64,000 bases of DNA, from IMG/VR virus record IMGVR_UViG_3300020576_004096. One strand, 5' to 3'. The DNA comes from an uncultured virus (IMG/VR IMGVR_UViG_3300020576_004096). Its lineage: Duplodnaviria > Heunggongvirae > Uroviricota > Caudoviricetes. Below the pieces are notes generated by a model. It worked only from the letters and a program-made list of their open reading frames with translations. It was not told the origin of the DNA and searched no databases. The position numbers were made by a program, and so were the translations under genes. Positions 5,418 through 43,664 of the stretch are shown here, in pieces (the stretch's first letter is position 1; each line of letters opens with the position of its first letter).

Positions 5418-5939
5418 ATGCCAAAACTTAGAAGAGCCTTCCATGCCCCTGAAACACTCATAGTCGCTTCTATCGTCTGCCTCCTGCTCGGTATCCTCAT
5501 ACCAGCAATCTTCAAAGCAAAAGAAGCTGCTAGCAAAATTTCCGCGCAAAATCAAAAGTCTTCACAGAACCAGAAGCAGCAACTCTCAAAAGAAGAAAAG
5601 GATAGACTCTTCCAAGAACAAATCCAAATCGGAAAGCAAAAGGCTGAACAACGTCGAGCAGAAATGCTCGCTAAAGAAGCTCAAGAAGAAAATGAACGCC
5701 TCGCAGCTATAGAAAAAGAAAAACAACAACAGGAAATCTTGCAAAAAGAATACCTCTCCCAAATACAACCCCTCAACTTCGTAGTCACACCCTGGCAATA
5801 TAACAGAGAACAAGAGTTCTCTGTCTTCGTTCTCTATGATATCACTAATAAAGTAGAATATCTTGTCGTTAAGACCGGACTCGGAACCCCTAACCCGTCA
5901 ATCTCCATAACCCCAAGATATAAAAACACAAATCCCTAA
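5418..5939 (+). CDS. protein with degenerate prepilin-type N-terminus and coiled coil
   Basis: RRAFHAPETLIVASIVCLLLGILIPAIFKAKEAA resembles planctomycete RxGFTLIELLVV...LLPAVxxAREAA. Confidence 0.6.
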   Translation: MPKLRRAFHAPETLIVASIVCLLLGILIPAIFKAKEAASKISAQNQKSSQNQKQQLSKEEKDRLFQEQIQIGKQKAEQRRAEMLAKEAQEENERLAAIEKEKQQQEILQKEYLSQIQPLNFVVTPWQYNREQEFSVFVLYDITNKVEYLVVKTGLGTPNPSISITPRYKNTNP

Positions 5940-6019
5940 TTTTCCGCGCCAAATATCAAATCTTCACAACAAGAAGACCAGTACCAACAAAACCAGCAAC
6001 ACTAGCAACGGAGCCAACT

Positions 6020-6457
6020 ATGCAGAACCCCAAAGAACCCAAGGTCATCATCGAAAGAGATTTCATCACAGTTAGAAATAACCTCATAGAAGAACTACGA
6101 CATGAACTCTATATGGCTGTCCCAACATCCGTAGTCCCAGTAGACCAAATACTCGAAGCTGTTATTGAATACGACTTTTTTGGACCTAGTATCTCCTTAG
6201 AGTTCGTTAAGCACTGGTTCCTGTTCAGAAGAAAAACAGTCATCGCTACCGTTGACTTCGTTCCAGACGTATCCACCCCAAATGTTATAGCAGACGAAAC
6301 CAAAACAGGTATGCTCGTTGCTAAATGTTACAATAAAGACTTTGAGTTCCTTATCACCAAAGTTCTTATGGATATCTCCACAAAGTTCAACCTCTCACAA
6401 CCTGTTCTTAAGAGAAAAGGCTATGATACCTATGCCATAGAACCTCCTACAGAATAA
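6020..6457 (+). CDS. hypothetical protein
   Basis: GGAG SD. Confidence 0.65.
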   Translation: MQNPKEPKVIIERDFITVRNNLIEELRHELYMAVPTSVVPVDQILEAVIEYDFFGPSISLEFVKHWFLFRRKTVIATVDFVPDVSTPNVIADETKTGMLVAKCYNKDFEFLITKVLMDISTKFNLSQPVLKRKGYDTYAIEPPTE

Positions 6458-6548
6458 CTTTTGATACTTCTTCGAAACCTTCGAAAATCTCACACTAGCA
6501 AATCTTGTACTAAAGTCAGGGTAAAGCTAAAACAAAGGACGAGCAGTA

Positions 6549-7204: not shown

Positions 7205-7648
7205 ATCTCGCTCTTCAAGTTCCGCCCACTGCGCCAGCAATTCAGTACGCCTTCATATGGCTAACTATGAGCGTTGTTACAACCTTCCTCATTGAGAATA
7301 ACCTCAACCGTCCATGCTCTACCAGAGATTATCTCCTGAGCTTCTTCCTCTGGCCGCTTTTACTATTCTTATTTTGTTTAGCCGTACTCTTTGACGCCAT
7401 AGGACGTTTGAGGGTTTGGCTATGCAAAAAAACGTATGGAGGACGATTTTCTTGGCTATTTTGTCGTCGTCGTTAAAGACAATCACCCTCCACAGCGTAC
7501 TGTGAAGGGTGATTGCAACATGCTTCATTCCAACCAGAACGGAGAAGAACTGGAGGAAGAAGCTAGTCTCTATGTGGCCCCAACAGCCCCATGCTTCTCC
7601 GAAGGGCAGGAAAGAGGGCAAAGGGCGGGTGGTGGCCTCTAATGGGAG

Positions 7649-8371
7649 ATGCCGACAAAGTTTAGTCCTAGGGGAGCGGTTAGGAGTTTGGCTATGCGAG
7701 TAAGACGTTTGGAAGTGGAATGGAACGGCGGCAAGGCGACGGTAGACTTGCGGGGCGAGTCTGGTAGTCCATTACCTATTGTTGGGATAGTAGGCGGGAA
7801 CGGCTCAGGGAAGAGCATGCTTCAGAAAATGGCATTGCGGCTATTTCGCAACGCCATGTATCCTGATACGAGTTTTGCGGACTGGGCTGCTGTGAGCGGG
7901 TATGGGGAACTGGAGTATGGGGGCGCAATAGCTACTGGTGTTGTAAAGCAGGGCAAAATAGTGCAAAGTTTGGTATTTCCTGATACGGTCTTGAAGGAGC
8001 GTCAGGTGTTGGGCGGGTTATTGGGGTACAACTCAGCATTATGCATGAGGTCATTTATTAGTGGTAGTGCTTTGGATTCAGGGGGATTTGGGGTAGAGAT
8101 GGTACGGTCTGTGTTGACTGATTTGTACAAGGGGGAGATAAGGAACTCTGTTATCTGGGTTGATTCGTTTGATGTCGGGTTGGATGATTCTTGTGCGCGG
8201 GAATTTTTGAAGGTTCTAGTTAAGAAGAGTTTGGAGAGGGACAATCAGTTGATTGTTAGCACTGCGCGGCGAGAGCTACTTTCTGGTATTGGCGAGGACG
8301 CTATCCGTCAACTCAGCGCTGGCACGAATGTTGTCGAGAAGATTCTCAAGACTCTCAAGACTCTCCGGTGA
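7649..8371 (+). CDS. ABC/AAA-type P-loop ATPase (start probably 7694)
   Basis: Walker A GGNGSGKS; Walker B-like VIWVDSFDVGLD; QLIVST. Confidence 0.7.
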   Translation: MPTKFSPRGAVRSLAMRVRRLEVEWNGGKATVDLRGESGSPLPIVGIVGGNGSGKSMLQKMALRLFRNAMYPDTSFADWAAVSGYGELEYGGAIATGVVKQGKIVQSLVFPDTVLKERQVLGGLLGYNSALCMRSFISGSALDSGGFGVEMVRSVLTDLYKGEIRNSVIWVDSFDVGLDDSCAREFLKVLVKKSLERDNQLIVSTARRELLSGIGEDAIRQLSAGTNVVEKILKTLKTLR

Positions 8372-16490: not shown

Positions 16491-17139
16491 TATTGTGATT
16501 ATTGGCGACGTTCATGGGAAGTGGCCCATGCTTAAGAACGTCTGCGATAAGTACGCGAAGAAGACGGTTCTTGGTCTTGGCGACGTTGGTATTGGCTTTG
16601 TTGGAAGCCGAGAGCCGAAGCTGCCTGAGAACTTTCGTTTCTTCCGCGGAAATCATGACAATCCAGCAGTTTGCAGAGCGCATCCGCAGTATGCTGTCGA
16701 GTACGGCATGTGGAACGGTCTGTACATTGTTGCTGGCGCTGACTCTGTTGATAAGAAGTGGAGAAAAGAGGGCATTGATTGGTGGCCTGACGAGCAGCTT
16801 GGTCGAGAGGTCATGGAGCTTGCGCTTGAGGATTATATCAAGACCAAGCCTGATATCCTGATTTGCCATGAGGCTCCTTTCAGGATTCATCAGATTGCCA
16901 AGGCTGCTTCTTGCACTTATGACCGCAACAACGAGGGTTGGGGCGAGCCAAAGGGAAATTCCACAGCTTTCTTGCTTGATTCGATGATTCAGGCTCATAT
17001 GCCTAAGATGCTCGTACATGGGCATTGGCATAATCCTCTCATCTATAAGCAGTGGGGCTGCGTCTTTATCTCCTTGGGAGAGCTTGAGGCGCTGGATTTG
17101 GAAGCGGCGCTGGCGTACTACAAAATCAAGCTGAGCTAG
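16471..17139 (+). CDS. calcineurin-like metallophosphoesterase
   Basis: GDVHG, GDVG, RGNHD, HEAP, HGHWH motifs. Confidence 0.85.
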   Translation: MNPSLNDIVIIGDVHGKWPMLKNVCDKYAKKTVLGLGDVGIGFVGSREPKLPENFRFFRGNHDNPAVCRAHPQYAVEYGMWNGLYIVAGADSVDKKWRKEGIDWWPDEQLGREVMELALEDYIKTKPDILICHEAPFRIHQIAKAASCTYDRNNEGWGEPKGNSTAFLLDSMIQAHMPKMLVHGHWHNPLIYKQWGCVFISLGELEALDLEAALAYYKIKLS

Positions 17140-17176
17140 AGTTCACAAAATTCTTTGGTGGAAATTGAAGGAGTTT

Positions 17177-17205
17177 TTGACTTCTAGCCGAAAAGAGAGT
17201 ATCAT
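17177..17205 (+). promoter_or_regulatory. sigma70-type promoter for Leu leader/tRNA-Leu cluster
   Basis: TTGACT-17 nt-TATCAT. Confidence 0.65.
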
Positions 17206-17263
17206 GATTACCATGAAGACCAACTTCGTCAGCTTGTTATGCGGCCTCCTACTCCTTACCTAA
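17204..17263 (+). CDS. Leu-rich attenuator leader peptide MITMKTNFVSLLCGLLLLT (alternative start 17213)
   Basis: six Leu codons TTG TTA CTC CTA CTC CTT just before the stop and the antiterminator. Confidence 0.8.
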   Translation: MITMKTNFVSLLCGLLLLT

Positions 17264-17325
17264 AGGGATGGAAGTCGTTGCGCAATCGCACATCGAACCC
17301 CATCCCTAAAAAGATGGGGTTTTTT
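17264..17325 (+). terminator. attenuator: antiterminator AGGGATGG and terminator AACCCCATC/GATGGGGTT-TTTT
   Basis: 17264-17271 complementary to 17300-17307, overlapping the terminator 5' arm. Confidence 0.8.
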
Positions 17326-17335
17326 CGTTAATATC

Positions 17336-17409
17336 GCTCATGTATCCCAACTGGCAGAGGAGCAATCCTGAGAAGGTTGTTGTTGGAGGTTCGAATCCTC
17401 TCATGAGCA
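17336..17409 (+). tRNA. tRNA-Leu(GAG), short variable loop
   Basis: cloverleaf; loop CTGAGAA. Confidence 0.85.
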
Positions 17410-17413
17410 TTTA

Positions 17414-17497
17414 GGCCTTGTGGCGGAATTGGCAGACGCGCTACCTTGAGGTGGTAGTTTCCGTAAGGAAGTGCAGGTTCGAGTCCTGTCAAGGCCA
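17414..17497 (+). tRNA. tRNA-Leu(GAG)
   Basis: cloverleaf with long variable arm; loop TTGAGGT. Confidence 0.92.
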
Positions 17498-17515
17498 TTT
17501 GATAACTGAATATGC

Positions 17516-17597
17516 GGCCCTGTGGCGAAATTGGCAGATGCGTCAGACTTAGGATCTGGTGCCGAAAGGCGTGGAGGTTCGAATCCTCTCAGGGTCA
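17516..17597 (+). tRNA. tRNA-Leu(TAG)
   Basis: loop CTTAGGA; long variable arm. Confidence 0.92.
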
Positions 17598-17610
17598 TTT
17601 TAGATTACAG

Positions 17611-17694
17611 GCCCCTGTGGCGGAACTGGCAGACGCGCTTGACTCAAAATCAAGTTCTCGCAAGGGAGTGGAGGTTCAAGTCCTCTCAGGGGCA
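17611..17694 (+). tRNA. tRNA-Leu(CAA)
   Basis: loop CTCAAAA; long variable arm. Confidence 0.92.
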
Positions 17695-17699
17695 TTCTC

Positions 17700-17776
17700 G
17701 TCCAAGTAGCACAATTTTGGCAGATGCAGCTACCTCAAACGTAGTACGGTGATGGGTTCGAATCCCTCCTTGGACA
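17700..17776 (+). tRNA. tRNA-Leu(CAA), short variable loop
   Basis: loop CTCAAAC. Confidence 0.8.
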
Positions 17777-17800
17777 TTCTCGCTCCTAACGGAGAAGCTC

Positions 17801-17876
17801 GCTCTTGTAGCCCAACCTTGGCAGAGGCGCTAGACTCAGAATCTAGATGTTGCTGGTTCGAATCCAGTCAAGAGCA
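17801..17876 (+). tRNA. tRNA-Leu(CAG), short variable loop
   Basis: loop CTCAGAA. Confidence 0.88.
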
Positions 17877-17892
17877 TTCAGAACTAAACTTC

Positions 17893-17966
17893 GGCTCCAT
17901 AGCACAATCGGCAGATGCAGTTGATTTAAGGTCAAAGGGTTGAGAGTTCGAATCTCTCTGGAGCTA
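17893..17966 (+). tRNA. tRNA-Leu(TAA), short variable loop
   Basis: loop TTTAAGG. Confidence 0.8.
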
Positions 17967-17968
17967 TT

Positions 17969-18388
17969 ATGACAGCGCTTGCTTCTTCTCGTTCTCATAC
18001 TCTTAAGCTAGCAACCGCTGTTCAAAGCGAAGCGGACCTCCGTAAGGAAAAAACTCTTTCTGGATTTCAACTGATAAAGTCCGCGAGGAGGCCCGATTTG
18101 GACCTTATTGCGGACGCTTTTTCTTTTGCGCAAGACAGTCCTCTTCAATACAAGGTCATTGACCTGATTGCGATTTATCGAAGCGTTCTGGAAATGAGAG
18201 ACGATATTCACTCTTCCAGAGTCTCTACCTGCGATAAGTTCCTGGACGAGGTAGAGAAGTGTCTCAATCACTTCTTGGACCATAAGACTTTGCCTGAGCG
18301 CAAAATGACTGTTTCTCAAATCATTGGCCCCGTGGCGAAACTGGCAGACGCAACGGACTTAAAATCCGTAGCCCGTAAAAAGGCGTAG
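17969..18388 (+). CDS. hypothetical protein between tRNA genes; 3' end reads into tRNA-Leu(TAA)
   Basis: ORF track. Confidence 0.45.
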   Translation: MTALASSRSHTLKLATAVQSEADLRKEKTLSGFQLIKSARRPDLDLIADAFSFAQDSPLQYKVIDLIAIYRSVLEMRDDIHSSRVSTCDKFLDEVEKCLNHFLDHKTLPERKMTVSQIIGPVAKLADATDLKSVARKKA

Positions 18389-18411
18389 GGGTTCAAATCC
18401 CCTCGGGGCCA
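18326..18411 (+). tRNA. tRNA-Leu(TAA)
   Basis: loop CTTAAAA; long variable arm. Confidence 0.92.
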
Positions 18412-18462
18412 TTTCACTTGCAACAAGTCCAAGACTAAACTTTCGGCATAGAGTTCTAGACT

Positions 18463-19823: not shown

Positions 19824-20240
19824 ATGAGAATCTTGTTTCTTGATGACATGAAAAGCAGGCGAGACGCATTTCGCCAAAACTCAATTGGCTGCGTTGTTGA
19901 CTTTGCTATCACTGCGCAAGAAGCAATTGATCTTCTGAAAAAGAACGAGTATGACGCGATCTATCTTGATCACGATCTTGAAGAAGAACATTACCAATCG
20001 AACAAAGACGATCATGAGGATGGTCGTTTTGTTGCGCGTCATTTGAAAGATATGACGCAGCATCATGGTAAGATTGTGATCATTCATAGCTTGAATCCTG
20101 TTGGCAGGGCAAACATGAAGTCCATTTTGGACGTTCATTTTGATGTTTGGATGCCAGAGAATGTTAAGGTTTCAGAGCTTTGGAAAGTTGAAGTTGCAAC
20201 ACTGATTGGCGCAATTCACAAATTCAATAATCAGAATTGA
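19824..20240 (+). CDS. cyclic-phosphate-processing receiver-domain protein
   Basis: ILFLDD..R, IYLDHDL, IIHSLNPVG motifs. Confidence 0.7.
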   Translation: MRILFLDDMKSRRDAFRQNSIGCVVDFAITAQEAIDLLKKNEYDAIYLDHDLEEEHYQSNKDDHEDGRFVARHLKDMTQHHGKIVIIHSLNPVGRANMKSILDVHFDVWMPENVKVSELWKVEVATLIGAIHKFNNQN

Positions 20241-20748: not shown

Positions 20749-20777
20749 TTGACTTTTGCGAAAAAAGCCGATACAGT
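20749..20777 (+). promoter_or_regulatory. sigma70-type promoter for Ile/Val/His/Trp leader
   Basis: TTGACT-17 nt-TACAGT. Confidence 0.55.
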
Positions 20778-20818
20778 AGAATACGGAGTTCTCTCGAATA
20801 GAGAGTGGATTGAAACAA

Positions 20819-20884
20819 ATGAACAGCATAGTCGTACATCAGGTGATTTGGCATGTCATTACCTCAAGGGGTAAGGACTGTTAA
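20819..20884 (+). CDS. attenuator leader peptide MNSIVVHQVIWHVITSRGKDC
   Basis: 10 of codons 4-14 are Ile/Val/His/Trp; contains the antiterminator segment. Confidence 0.8.
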   Translation: MNSIVVHQVIWHVITSRGKDC

Positions 20885-20913
20885 CTACTTGATGTACGTT
20901 AGCAGGTTTTCCG

Positions 20914-20945
20914 AACCCCTTGAGCAGAAGCTTGAGGGGTTTTTT
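20914..20945 (+). terminator. attenuator terminator AACCCCTTGAGC-AGAA-GCTTGAGGGGTT-TTTT
   Basis: 5' arm 20915-20924 is the exact complement of CTCAAGGGGT 20863-20872. Confidence 0.85.
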
Positions 20946-20978
20946 CTTTGACAATTGAATATTTTCAGGTACAAAGTT

Positions 20979-21049
20979 ACGCCGTTGGTCTAGTGGCTGG
21001 GCCTTGGATTCCAAATCCAACGACGCGGGTTCGATTCCCCCACGGCGTG
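20979..21049 (+). tRNA. tRNA-Trp(CCA)
   Basis: loop TTCCAAA. Confidence 0.85.
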
Positions 21050-21123
21050 TTGACTTGATTGTGAAAAGTAAAAAGATACGATACATCTTCTGAGCGCTTA
21101 CTTTTACCACTTGGAGCAAATCC

Positions 21124-21423
21124 ATGTCCGACTCCCCCAAAGCTGTCAGAAATCGTCGTCCGCTTCAGAAGCCAGTATTTATTCTTCAACCTTTTGATTC
21201 TGCAAATCCTGAGCATATGAAGGGTAACATCACTATTACCCTGAATAAGGCTCTGGCTCTTGAGCTTACCAGGTTCATCAAAGAAAGCGAACTTGGCGAA
21301 AACGAGGGGCATATCTACGCAATGCAGGGTCACATCAGTCGTTGGTTCAAGCAGCGTTCGGATGAAATCAAGAAGCAGAAAGAAACGAAAACTGAAGAAG
21401 TTCAGCCGGAAGGTCAGAACTAA
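21124..21423 (+). CDS. hypothetical protein
   Basis: GGAG SD; stop inside ACTAAACTT. Confidence 0.65.
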   Translation: MSDSPKAVRNRRPLQKPVFILQPFDSANPEHMKGNITITLNKALALELTRFIKESELGENEGHIYAMQGHISRWFKQRSDEIKKQKETKTEEVQPEGQN

Positions 21424-21435
21424 ACTTCAGAGCAT

Positions 21436-21508
21436 GGGCGCATAACTCAATGGCTAGAGTGCCACCTTTACACGGTGGAAGTTGTCGGTTCGAGTCCGGC
21501 TGTGCCTA
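21436..21508 (+). tRNA. tRNA-Val(TAC)
   Basis: loop TTTACAC. Confidence 0.92.
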
Positions 21509-21597
21509 CTTTAGAAAACTCAGGTTAGCTAAACCTGCTCAAAAATGAGTACCCGCTAGTTTTGACTTGTAAAATCAAGGAGTTCTAGCAGCTTTAT

Positions 21598-21672
21598 GGT
21601 GGTCGTAGCTCAACTGGTTAGAGCATCTGGTTGTGATCCAGAGGGTTACGGGTTCGAGTCCCGCCGATCACC
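21598..21672 (+). tRNA. tRNA-His(GTG) with encoded G-1
   Basis: loop TTGTGAT; G-1:C73. Confidence 0.92.
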
Positions 21673-21751
21673 CTTGTCAGAAATCTTTGGAATAAAGAAG
21701 GATTCTTCTAACACCTCACAGTAATCACACTTGAGGTATAAGGAGAATCAA

Positions 21752-22201
21752 ATGAATACCAAAGACATTGGAGATAAATCTGAGGCTATAATCTTCTGCG
21801 AATTGGTAAAAAGAGGTTTTACAGTTCTAAAACCTTGGGGAGATAACAGGAAATACGATTTCGTAGTTGATATAGGTAAAGGAGATTTTCAAAGAATACA
21901 GAGTAAAACTGGTTACATAGAAAATGGAGTAATCAGATTCACTCCAAGATCAGTAACCACAGAAAACGGAAAAACAAAAACGGTTTCTTACTCAAAAGAT
22001 GACATAGATTTTTTTATGGTCTATTGCAGAGATAATGATAAAATATACTGCATTAGCATAGAAGATTGCCCTAAGGATACCTGCTTTCTAAGATTGGAAC
22101 CATCTAAAAATGGGCAAACAAAAGGAATCAGGATGGCAAGCAACTTTGAGTTGGATAAAAAGATAACGGCCCTTAGCTCACATGGTAGAGCGAACGCCTG
22201 A
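21752..22201 (+). CDS. PD-(D/E)XK homing-type endonuclease
   Basis: GDKSE...PWGDNRKYDFVVD...RIQSK; AT-rich; inside tRNA cluster. Confidence 0.8.
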   Translation: MNTKDIGDKSEAIIFCELVKRGFTVLKPWGDNRKYDFVVDIGKGDFQRIQSKTGYIENGVIRFTPRSVTTENGKTKTVSYSKDDIDFFMVYCRDNDKIYCISIEDCPKDTCFLRLEPSKNGQTKGIRMASNFELDKKITALSSHGRANA

Positions 22202-22239
22202 TAAGCGTTAGGTTGAGGATTCGAGCGCCTCAGGGCCGA
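22167..22239 (+). tRNA. tRNA-Ile(GAT)
   Basis: loop CTGATAA; one T-stem mismatch. Confidence 0.8.
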
Positions 22240-22289
22240 TTTGATAAGGGAGGGGTCGGGATTTCAATATTCCCCAGTCCTATTTTGTT

Positions 22290-22377
22290 TGGAGCGTGGG
22301 CCGAGATGGATAGGCAACCGACTGATAATCGGTGAGGCGTAACAACGCTAACGCAGGTTCGATTCCTGTCGCTCCAA
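22290..22377 (+). tRNA. tRNA-Ile(GAT) with long variable arm
   Basis: loop CTGATAA; variable hairpin GCGT-AACA-ACGC. Confidence 0.75.
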
Positions 22378-22384
22378 CTTTACT

Positions 22385-22457
22385 GGTCGATTAGCTCAAT
22401 GGCTAGAGCATTGTCTTGACGTGACAGAGGTTACAGGTTCGAGTCCTGTATCGACCA
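22385..22457 (+). tRNA. tRNA-Val(GAC)
   Basis: loop TTGACGT. Confidence 0.92.
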
Positions 22458-22492
22458 CTTAGAACTAAACTTCTTGAGGGAAAAACAAACGC

Positions 22493-25355: not shown

Positions 25356-25661
25356 AAGCACTTGTATCGAGACTTGAAAACTTGACGGCCAATAAAGTCT
25401 CGACTACAATATGGCTCATGTCCCTTGGACCTCCGCGACGAGGCTTGCAAGGGCGACTCACTGCGAAGGAAACGACGCACTGAGTTTTAGTAGAGATGGC
25501 TGGGTCTTTCGGGTTTACAATCCCCCTTTTCTCCAGCGTCTCTATGAAGGTCAACCGCCGACCTACAGGATTGGTAAAAGATTGCGGGCCAACCGGCTTC
25601 TACGGACGCTGGACCTGGCAGCCCTCTGATGCGAAAGCAAAAAGAGTGGCTTTCAAAATAC

Positions 25662-25754
25662 GGGCGAGTAGCTCAGAGAAGAAGAGGAGTCACATCCTCG
25701 AAGGAGCGGCGAGCGCAAGCTCGCAGGTCGTTGGTTCGAATCCAACCTTGCCCA
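25662..25754 (+). ncRNA. tRNA-like RNA with GCAA tetraloop in place of anticodon loop
   Basis: GGGCGAG/CTTGCCC-A; GTTGG-TTCGAAT-CCAAC; GCGAGC-GCAA-GCTCGC. Confidence 0.65.
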
Positions 25755-25762
25755 CTTTCTCC

Positions 25763-26410
25763 TTGACAAGTGAATATGGTAAGCGGTGACTGAAAATCTA
25801 ACGCCTATCTCCAGGCGTAAGGTACTGGACTCATTGGTGGTTCAGGTACAAGTAAGTCGTTTCGGTGTAGTGCAGAAGGAAAGTGGGTATCCGGCAAAGG
25901 CCAATAGGAAAACCACTGGGGCGCTAAGTCCTGACTGGCCATAATCAATTTTGACCAGGGGAGCAGGATTGCAGGTAATCATACCTGTCTCGGAGAGGCC
26001 TGATTCGAAGCAGGTCTCTATGATGAGTCGCATAATAACACTGGGATGGACGAAAGTTCAGAAGCTCGTAACTTCTGCCGCTTACCATGTTCACTTGTTG
26101 AAAAACTAAATAGGGTTGCATTGAACTTCTCCGTAGTAAATTGGCATGACCCTAGTTGATGCAAACGGCAACCAACTCCTGTAAGGGTTGGATTGCATTT
26201 AGACGGAAGCTTTGATCTCTTGGAAAGATAAATGTAGTCGGAAGAAATTACAGACTATGGGGTAAGGCCCCCAAAGCGTTAGCAACGGAAATGAGAGGAA
26301 AACCTACTCTCAACCCCAGCCGTAAGGTATGGATAACCAGCTAGCGCATCCGACGAAAAGAGGGAGCAACCGTTACTGAGGTTCTGTTTGATCGACAGTT
26401 CCTCGGTTTC
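25763..26410 (+). ncRNA. candidate large structured ncRNA (GOLLD-class context)
   Basis: about 650 nt without a credible ORF between tRNA genes; 24-bp long-range stem 25763-25786/26078-26101. Confidence 0.55.
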
Positions 26411-31006: not shown

Positions 31007-31079
<73 letters not shown>

Positions 31080-43524: not shown

Positions 43525-43664
43525 GCCGACATAGCTCAACTGGTTAGAGCAACAGCGTCTCCCGAGCATGGAGCTATAGCGTAGCTCTGAGCAAAGGATG
43601 ACCGAGCCGAACGCTACGGCGGGAAAAGCTGAGGTTGGAGGTTCGAGTCCTCTTGTCGGCACCA
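43525..43664 (+). ncRNA. tRNA scaffold with about 70-nt structured insert replacing the anticodon loop; encoded CCA
   Basis: GCCGACA/TGTCGGC-ACCA, canonical D- and T-arms. Confidence 0.75.

Follow-up and report, generated by a model that had tools for sequence, protein, structure and literature searches.

Transcription attenuation by leader peptides is known from amino-acid operons, among them those controlled by leuL, trpL and hisL and by the multivalent leaders ilvL/ivbL and thrL. In pheM-pheST, a leader peptide controls a transfer RNA (tRNA) synthetase operon. To our knowledge, it is largely unknown how the dozens of tRNA genes carried by phages are regulated. Here, a DNA stretch of 64,000 nucleotides (nt) from an uncultured virus of the Caudoviricetes (IMG/VR record IMGVR_UViG_3300020576_004096) was analyzed; this whole stretch is referred to as the window. 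Upstream of a group of tRNA-Leu genes it carries a promoter, a short reading frame rich in Leu codons and an intrinsic terminator (Table 1). A preliminary description of the sequence had interpreted this element, named the Leu leader in the following, as a leader-peptide attenuator. According to the comparison presented here, the Leu leader is probably a ribosome-mediated transcription attenuator whose output is tRNA. This interpretation is supported by conservation, covariation, folding with a masked ribosome footprint, recurrence of the design with other amino acids and permutation of tRNA sets. It would be a known mechanism, leader-peptide attenuation, in a new variant in which tRNA genes and not biosynthetic or synthetase genes are regulated.

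With the enterobacterial leuL (Rfam family Leu_leader), the element shares a short frame in which Leu codons, a rare one among them, form a run, the hairpins 1:2, 2:3 and 3:4, and a stop codon placed such that the terminating ribosome blocks the antiterminator. The output of leuL is leucine biosynthesis, whereas tRNA-Leu genes are found here. In addition, leuL employs one repeated rare codon, whereas the phage-encoded Leu leader contains five codon types and has a predicted leaderless messenger RNA (mRNA). No sequence similarity between the Leu leader and Leu_leader was detected, and no covariance-model match was obtained at E <= 10. The mixed codon run of ilvL/ivbL and thrL, which brings about control by any of several amino acids, resembles that of a second leader in the window and of the leaders in other phages described below. 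The set of amino acids is given by the biosynthetic pathway in the former, whereas it is given by the tRNAs of the downstream cluster in the latter. The pheM-pheST system is comparable in that a leader-peptide attenuator acts on a component of the decoding machinery and not on amino-acid synthesis; it differs in that a protein-coding operon is controlled there, whereas here the tRNAs themselves would be the output and the sensor would read its own product. T-box riboswitches also sense the status of tRNA via the choice between terminator and antiterminator, but they bind uncharged tRNA directly and need no ribosome. E. coli pheV likewise has a sigma-70 promoter before tRNA genes, but this promoter is located directly before the tRNA, without a leader frame or an upstream terminator. 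An attenuator had also been considered for the E. coli tRNA-Phe genes; it was not borne out for pheV.

In the Rfam search no family was found to explain either leader of the window. No T-box was detected and the best matches were far below the gathering scores; for the second leader these included weak matches to His_leader and the PyrR site with 15-26 bits compared to cut-offs of 49-54. A full-text literature search, with subscription journals outside its coverage, found no leader-peptide attenuator ahead of tRNA genes, which agrees with the preliminary description, where none was known. In the passages retrieved, PMC3082878 mentions a tRNA operon in another context and PMC3890552 covers leader peptides before amino-acid genes in Corynebacterium.

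Anatomy and conservation of the Leu leader

The promoter reported earlier, with its 17-nt spacer, is present. It matches the consensus in 10 of 12 positions and obtained the top score among nine promoter-like sites in the region of 14-24 kilobases (kb). With 8.0 +/- 2.5 sites in shuffled sequences, this count does not exceed chance, and therefore the promoter call depends on conservation in relatives; four of four variants, the window included, have the promoter.

The six Leu codons of the frame belong to five types, the sole missing type being CTG. The chance of finding at least five types among six Leu codons is 0.098. The codons include the two rarest Leu codons of the phage, TTA (5.4%) and CTA (3.5%; n = 739 Leu codons), and Leu is the most enriched residue of the leader (6 of 15, p = 9e-4). 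Thus, the codon content claimed for the short frame was recovered; its start had to be revised. From the earliest ATG the frame would span positions 17204-17263, with the stop codon at 17261-17263. Since the ATG at 17204 overlaps the −10 hexamer, it is probably not contained in the transcript. The conserved start is the ATG at 17213, located 7 nt past the −10 hexamer in the window. The distance between this ATG and the −10 hexamer is constant and puts its A at the expected transcription start, which is why the Leu leader mRNA is read as leaderless.

Table 1. Predicted features of the two leaders and of the tRNA genes behind them (positions in the window).
Feature	Position	Strand	Description
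Leu leader, sigma-70-type promoter	17177..17205	+	−35 at 17177-17182, −10 at 17200-17205, 17-nt spacer
Leu leader, reading frame	17213..17263	+	16 codons and stop; six Leu codons at 17234-17239 and 17246-17257
Leu leader, hairpin 1:2 (protector/pause)	17241..17278	+	Leu-codon stretch 17241-17257 pairs with 17264-17278; minimum-energy fold
Leu leader, antiterminator 2:3	17264..17307	+	17264-17271, right after the stop, pairs with 17300-17307 (terminator 5′ arm and loop)
Leu leader, intrinsic terminator	17295..17325	+	10-bp stem 17295-17322, 8-nt loop, six T
Seven tRNA-Leu genes	17336..17966	+	anticodons GAG, GAG, TAG, CAA, CAA, CAG, TAA
Eighth tRNA-Leu gene (TAA)	18325..18412	+	about 360 nt apart from the other seven
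Second leader, promoter	20749..20777	+	9 of 12 consensus positions; same promoter family as the Leu leader; conserved
Second leader, reading frame	20819..20884	+	21 codons and stop; Ile x3, Val x4, His x2, Trp x1 in an 11-codon run
Second leader, antiterminator	20863..20924	+	20863-20872 (inside the frame) pairs with 20915-20924; 10 perfect pairs
Second leader, intrinsic terminator	20913..20948	+	20913-20942, 13 pairs, then a T run
tRNA cluster Trp, Val(TAC), His, Ile, Ile, Val(GAC)	20978..22458	+	interrupted by two protein frames

The complementarity between the nucleotides right after the stop codon and the region of the terminator 5′ arm, which had been described from the letters, amounts to 8 nt of perfect complement with a duplex energy of −16.2 kcal/mol. 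A terminator with a stem of 10 base pairs (bp) and a tail of six T is located ahead of the tRNA genes as claimed, and the proposed role of the Leu codons as protector is in line with the minimum-energy fold. The whole Leu leader folds better than 200 of 200 shuffled sequences (z = −2.9). ARAGORN and Rfam agree on eight tRNA-Leu genes with the anticodons first listed, and the first of these genes starts 10 nt past the terminator. The description as one all-leucine cluster holds for their number and identity; the distance of the eighth gene from the others had not been noted.

Four of the tRNA-Leu genes (17336-17409, 17700-17776, 17801-17876 and 17893-17966) have a short variable loop of 4-6 nt instead of the long bacterial-type arm. 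They keep a Leu-type D arm and A73, and the same form is found in the relatives and in LR756501, one of the other huge phages treated below.

The window originates from a very large phage and has nearly all of its genes on the + strand; its nearest records are viral contigs of 57 to 506 kb. For the identification of relatives, the phosphoesterase gene ending at position 17139 was used as an anchor. Among 12 anchor loci in viral contigs, four were found with 82-93% identity, all of them with a tRNA-Leu array behind the gene, and the other eight (24-36% identical) have no such array behind it. For one relative of 494 kb (G002), the completeness is rated at 98%, and 72 tRNA matches were obtained. 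A metagenome scan resulted in 47 loci, of which four (L038, L039, L041 and L043) were scanned for tRNAs, the rest being at most 40% identical or too short. In this way, the 494-kb type was found in two further copies, together with a truncated contig and a relative whose anchor protein is 56% identical (L041). In the genome collection, no relative above 34% identity was found, and a search with a pattern of the first tRNA yielded no records beyond those already found. Of 13 viral-contig loci found with a promoter pattern, eight were rejected as unrelated chance matches or other promoters (L019, L020, L024-L028 and L030). A search with a tRNA-Val pattern gave one known record and one chance match (L087).

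In total, four distinct Leu leader sequences in two deep lineages could be compared, namely those of the window, G001/L001, L002 and G002/L003 (the latter identical to L004, L038 and L039). The promoter with part of its spacer, an ATG 6-7 nt past the −10 hexamer, a stop codon and the terminator are kept in all four. The same applies to the arrangement of the Leu codons in a group of two and a group of four, followed by one more codon before the stop. Of the 14 codons that follow the start in the leader of G002, seven encode Leu, and most of the non-Leu positions are changed. This leader is one codon shorter due to an in-frame indel of 3 nt, ends with a different stop codon and shows two synonymous Leu changes. 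A longer frame starting from a TTG inside the −35 hexamer was rejected; it is open in the window and in G002, and in G001 and L002 it contains a stop and is out of frame.

The terminator arms of G002 differ from those of the window and the stretch at the stop codon is changed to match them, which results in nine pairs including one G-U. The pairing of hairpin 1:2 also exists in G002, with changed bases. In the sequences compared, the antiterminator of the Leu leader therefore is shown to co-vary with the terminator. The covariation was read by hand and with duplex tests; multiple alignments misaligned the diverged terminators. Leu-rich frame, terminator and tRNA-Leu array are conserved together in the relatives. 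The preliminary description had considered the case of homologs that keep the terminator and lose the Leu codons; the opposite was observed, with Leu retained and other residues, the terminator and the stop codon changed.

In L001, the nearest relative, the 5′ half of the second tRNA-Leu is separated by about 580 nt from an intact tRNA-Leu(GAG) (5907-6522), and several other gaps of 400-600 nt are present in the array. These may be introns or inserted genes.

Recurrence of the design and match to downstream tRNAs

The same design was found once more in the window, once in L041 and four times in two unrelated huge phages. In the second leader of the window, all codons of the 11-codon run apart from a single Gln specify Ile, Val, His or Trp, and 10 of 20 residues belong to the downstream tRNA set (p = 1.7e-4). 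The corresponding tRNA genes are nearly contiguous in G002. Four distinct variants of this leader were identified, with 5′ untranslated parts that are unrelated in sequence, and GGAG is located 9-10 nt before the ATG in two of the three types of 5′ untranslated region. The frame is kept among the variants; one Val codon is changed synonymously, and several residues beyond the codon run are replaced. In the second leader of G002, one pair was lost jointly from both terminator arms and the antiterminator strand, by which 10 perfect pairs became nine.

The early promoters at 17177 and 20749 of the window and in the region upstream of 225790 in G002 share conserved spacer bases beside the −10 hexamer. 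The tRNA-Glu cluster of G002 has a promoter of the same family and a 17-codon frame, but no terminator.

L041 contains a frame of 20 codons in which His, Ile, Val and Thr are abundant and Trp occurs once. The end of this frame adjoins an 8-bp complement of a terminator, and the terminator itself is located 7 nt before tRNA-Val, Ile, Val and Met. Relatives of the L041 phosphoesterase showed only 34-38% identity and no tRNAs.

The matches of the window in the phage database were tRNAs only, and two of these records were examined upstream of their tRNA-Leu genes. In LR756501.1, a frame of 22 codons contains seven Leu codons of all six types. It ends in a stretch equal to the 3′ arm of the following terminator and consequently complementary to its 5′ arm. 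One tRNA, detected by Rfam only, and five tRNA-Leu follow downstream. In LR756511.1, a frame of 26 codons with a Shine-Dalgarno-like sequence contains eight Ser, in which each of the six codon types is represented, along with five Leu and two Tyr. Behind it, a strong terminator precedes four tRNA-Ser, one tRNA-Leu, two tRNA-Tyr and four tRNA-Leu.

Two further leaders of LR756501.1 were identified by a systematic scan. One contains a 14-codon run made up purely of Ser, Lys, His, Phe and Trp, and the tRNAs behind it are Trp, His, His, Phe, Lys and Ser. The other has five Gln, four Ile and one Met besides the start and precedes a Met/Gln/Ile cluster. The Leu and the Gln/Ile/Met leaders of this phage have nearly the same terminator and different codon runs, each matching its own cluster; such paralogous switches would be expected of a modular family of attenuators. 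Between the Gln/Ile/Met terminator and the first called tRNA, two tRNA-like stretches are visible (L110, reverse strand, approximately 1925-2187), one of them with a long insertion, and neither is reported by ARAGORN or Rfam.

Considering all nine leaders, the residue most enriched relative to the composition of the phage itself belongs to the downstream tRNAs in eight cases, L041 being the exception. Leu is encoded by four to six codon types per leader and Ser by five to six. For a statistical comparison, 132 small ATG frames at most 250 nt upstream of tRNA clusters were collected from the window and the tRNA-rich parts of G002. The two leaders of the window and their counterparts in G002 are the four most cognate-rich frames of this set, with p values between 5e-5 and 1e-3. 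The same leaders rank at the top of 468 frames at 59 cluster starts if ATG, GTG and TTG are allowed as start codons. In four genomes, with L041 excluded, 1,205 small frames at 115 cluster starts were evaluated, and at eight starts a cognate-rich frame (p < 3e-3) with a terminator behind it was present. When the tRNA sets were permuted within genomes, a mean of 1.25 and a maximum of five such starts were obtained, and none of 500 permutations reached the observed eight. At the sequence level, this shows a match between leader codons and downstream tRNAs. The terminator upstream of the tRNA-Ala of G002 was rejected as an attenuator candidate because it belongs to a protein gene.

Predicted switching and weighing of the explanations

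The antiterminator duplex of the Leu leader in the window was reached by 0 of 2,000 and 4 of 2,000 dinucleotide shuffles in two tests. For the other leaders, the number of shuffles (of 2,000) reaching the complement of the terminator 5′ arm was 23 for the Leu leader and 142 for the second leader of G002, 34 for the second leader of the window, 60 for L041, and 18, 15 and nine for the leaders of LR756501. In eight of nine leaders the antiterminator strand falls within the final 35 nt of the frame, spans the stop codon or, in the case of the Leu leader of the window, directly follows the stop.

For the folding analysis, transcripts were cut before the 3′ arm of the terminator, the ribosome footprint was masked codon by codon and the sequestered fraction of the 5′ arm was determined. 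Cut transcripts were used since equilibrium folds of the full-length RNA favour the terminator in most states. For the Leu leader of the window, the 5′ arm was sequestered to 0.71 with the ribosome on the Leu codons and to 0.21 with the ribosome at the stop. Hence, a ribosome at the stop codon frees the terminator 5′ arm in the model and a ribosome on the Leu codons does not, as an attenuator would require. Similar values were obtained with the ribosome on the regulatory codons and further on or at the stop for the Leu leader of G002 (0.91 and 0.18), the second leader of the window (0.77 and 0.33) and the Leu leader of LR756501 (0.79 and 0.32-0.34).

From these features we infer the transcription start, the translation of the leader and its response to a shortage of tRNA. 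Host RNA polymerase would start at the ATG at 17213 or one base before, resulting in a leaderless mRNA onto which a ribosome loads once it has emerged, and this ribosome would read the 16 codons with six Leu codons of five types. If decoding is fast, the ribosome would reach the stop, cover 17264-17271 and block the pairing with 17300-17307, so that the terminator hairpin 17295-17322 could form and transcription would end ahead of the tRNA genes. If Leu-tRNA is scarce, the ribosome would stall on the Leu codons and open hairpin 1:2. The segment 17264-17271 would thereby be freed and could capture the terminator 5′ arm, and the polymerase would enter the tRNA-Leu array. The new tRNA would relieve the stall, and the loop would act as a homeostat for the capacity to decode Leu. 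As several codon types are present, the whole array could be opened when any one isoacceptor runs short. The second attenuator (20749-20948) would do the same for the Trp-Val-His-Ile-Ile-Val cluster via its mixed run of Ile, Val, His and Trp codons. As triggers, the preliminary description had suggested starvation or attack by host anticodon nucleases. The natural trigger could be a loss of host tRNA in infection, host anticodon nucleases or the codon demand of the phage.

A number of observations weigh against this interpretation. Upstream of the ATG at 17213 in the window no Shine-Dalgarno sequence was found, and with an mRNA predicted to be leaderless, translation rests on an inferred start. 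All four sequencing runs consulted consist of contigs; those from RNA libraries carry the leader of the G001 type plus DNA upstream of the promoter and are uninformative on RNA starts and ends, and their higher summed depth over the leader and tRNA bins is not usable as evidence. The switch is not clean in all leaders. In LR756511 the antiterminator complement is not significant, as 1,670 of 2,000 shuffles reach it, and no clean switch was found. The masking model of L041 shows no switch, with values of 0.79-0.88 throughout, and in the second leader of G002 the sequestration returns to 0.67 with the ribosome at the stop. In full-length equilibrium folds, the probability of the terminator is 0.84-0.89 for the Leu leader of G002 with the ribosome on the last three Leu codons and 0.81-0.98 at every codon for both second leaders. 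Due to this preference for the terminator at equilibrium, the switch needs a kinetic argument, like trpL.

Other points concern the distribution of the leaders and the coverage of their clusters. Only two of 59 cluster starts (window, parts of G002 and L041) carry such leaders, and most tRNA clusters of these phages are without one. The fit of L041 is partial; His is its most enriched residue, yet no tRNA-His was found within 20 kb of sequence. The seventh tRNA-Leu is directly preceded by a gene-start motif that occurs phage-wide (17883) and the eighth sits behind an open frame. Both may be expressed independently of the leader, and part of the cluster would then escape control. In the window, the relatives and LR756511, a recurrent motif starting with a −35-like hexamer (window 20946-20975 and 25761-25780; L102 2796-2815) is found ahead of tRNAs and behind terminators or other tRNAs. 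It may represent another promoter class that would bypass the attenuator, and since a promoter-like motif lies between the second terminator and tRNA-Trp, part of the second cluster may escape control as well. In a near-identical strain (run X4), 517 nt are inserted in the loop of the second terminator (window 20923-20928). In L013, about 500 nt with a minus-strand frame (7445-7940) are located between the intact second leader and terminator and tRNA-Trp, followed by a second, partial terminator. These inserts look like a mobile gene targeting the terminator. Finally, amino-acid starvation would trip the switch though extra tRNA would be of no help, and runs of Leu, Ile and Val also occur in small membrane peptides.

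The missing Shine-Dalgarno sequence would also fit an untranslated leader or small RNA, that is, a short structured RNA made from an early promoter with a partly leaky terminator, with the tRNAs transcribed by constitutive read-through and the Leu codons as a by-product of a pyrimidine-rich strand pairing with a purine-rich one. The Leu-codon stretch is one strand of hairpin 1:2 and could be conserved by structure alone, and terminators directly before tRNAs are also found without a leader, e.g., the protein-gene terminator before the tRNA-Ala of G002. This explanation is nevertheless considered unlikely, as ATG, frame and stop have persisted in spite of an in-frame indel and of changes in the non-Leu residues, the residue content follows the downstream tRNAs, and runs of Ser, His, Lys, Gln and Trp cannot be explained by a single pyrimidine-rich strand. 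Furthermore, three of the second-leader and foreign variants have a Shine-Dalgarno-like sequence at 8-10 nt. For small hydrophobic peptide genes with their own terminators that merely adjoin tRNA clusters, one could refer to the resemblance of the Leu leader to a fragment of a signal or membrane peptide and to the hydrophobic character of Leu, Ile and Val. However, the peptide is poorly conserved outside the regulatory residues, several leaders are polar, the adjacency to matching tRNAs is non-random and a peptide gene needs no complement of the terminator at its own stop codon, which makes this possibility very improbable.

Direct sensing of uncharged tRNA by an untranslated leader, as in a T-box, follows a similar biological logic. 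The leaders comprise only about 110-160 nt with many different cognate codons, and not one specifier, and neither gave a T-box match at E <= 10; such a mechanism is hardly to be expected here. Scarcely any weight is given to an assignment of the terminator to the upstream phosphoesterase gene, with the promoter as a chance match. No other terminator is found behind the gene ending at 17139 and promoter-like sites occur at chance frequency (9 compared to 8.0 expected), but all variants have retained the promoter together with part of its spacer and the same promoter family heads the second leader and the tRNA-Glu cluster of G002. In L002, moreover, an insert of about 120 nt between the phosphoesterase gene and the promoter leaves the unit of promoter, leader and terminator intact.

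Leader-peptide attenuation of tRNA genes remains the preferred explanation for the Leu leader. Beyond this single locus, we lean slightly towards a wider interpretation, in which huge phages carry a modular family of codon-sampling leaders, one per tRNA cluster. Each leader would sense the decoding of its codons and switch on the matching tRNAs when decoding falters, serving as a homeostat for the tRNA supply and as a detector of host tRNA depletion, e.g., by anticodon nucleases or phage-induced tRNA turnover. The codon runs would have been swapped and the terminator switch kept. A leader-peptide attenuator that senses the tRNA it puts out would be the first description of an autoregulatory circuit acting on tRNA genes. 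Such a circuit would make clear how a phage with 60-70 tRNAs keeps from expressing them wastefully, and it would bring phage tRNA arrays into the current debate on tRNA-targeting defence and counter-defence. From each leader, the codons that control the respective cluster can be predicted, and the modules could be used as compact codon-specific sensors of decoding capacity.

Further features of the window and its relatives

A motif of 9-11 nt is distributed over the whole window, with about 90 copies on the + strand and a single copy on the − strand (e.g., at 2039, 12364, 17883, 18434, 21419 and 30995). It is usually located right after the previous stop codon and 20-30 nt before the next ATG. 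In addition, it directly precedes some tRNAs, namely Leu at 17893, Val at 21436 and Lys at 31007. The motif is probably a phage-specific promoter or an RNA-processing signal.

Two protein genes lie near the second leader and within its cluster. A PD-(D/E)XK endonuclease gene (21743-22201) is located between tRNA-His and tRNA-Ile and is absent from this position in the 494-kb relative. Positions 19824-20240 encode a protein with a cyclic-phosphate-processing receiver domain, which is possibly linked to RNA repair.

A 20th tRNA of 137 nt with an insertion (43525-43661) was found by Rfam and missed by ARAGORN. ARAGORN also called a tRNA of 94 nt at 25662-25755, the anticodon of which is unclear. 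Downstream of a sigma-70-like promoter at 25382, a stretch of about 1 kb lacks a convincing gene. In G002 (206506-206579) and in locus L103 of LR756511, a tRNA with the anticodon CTA, which reads TAG, was detected, which hints at amber suppression or recoding.

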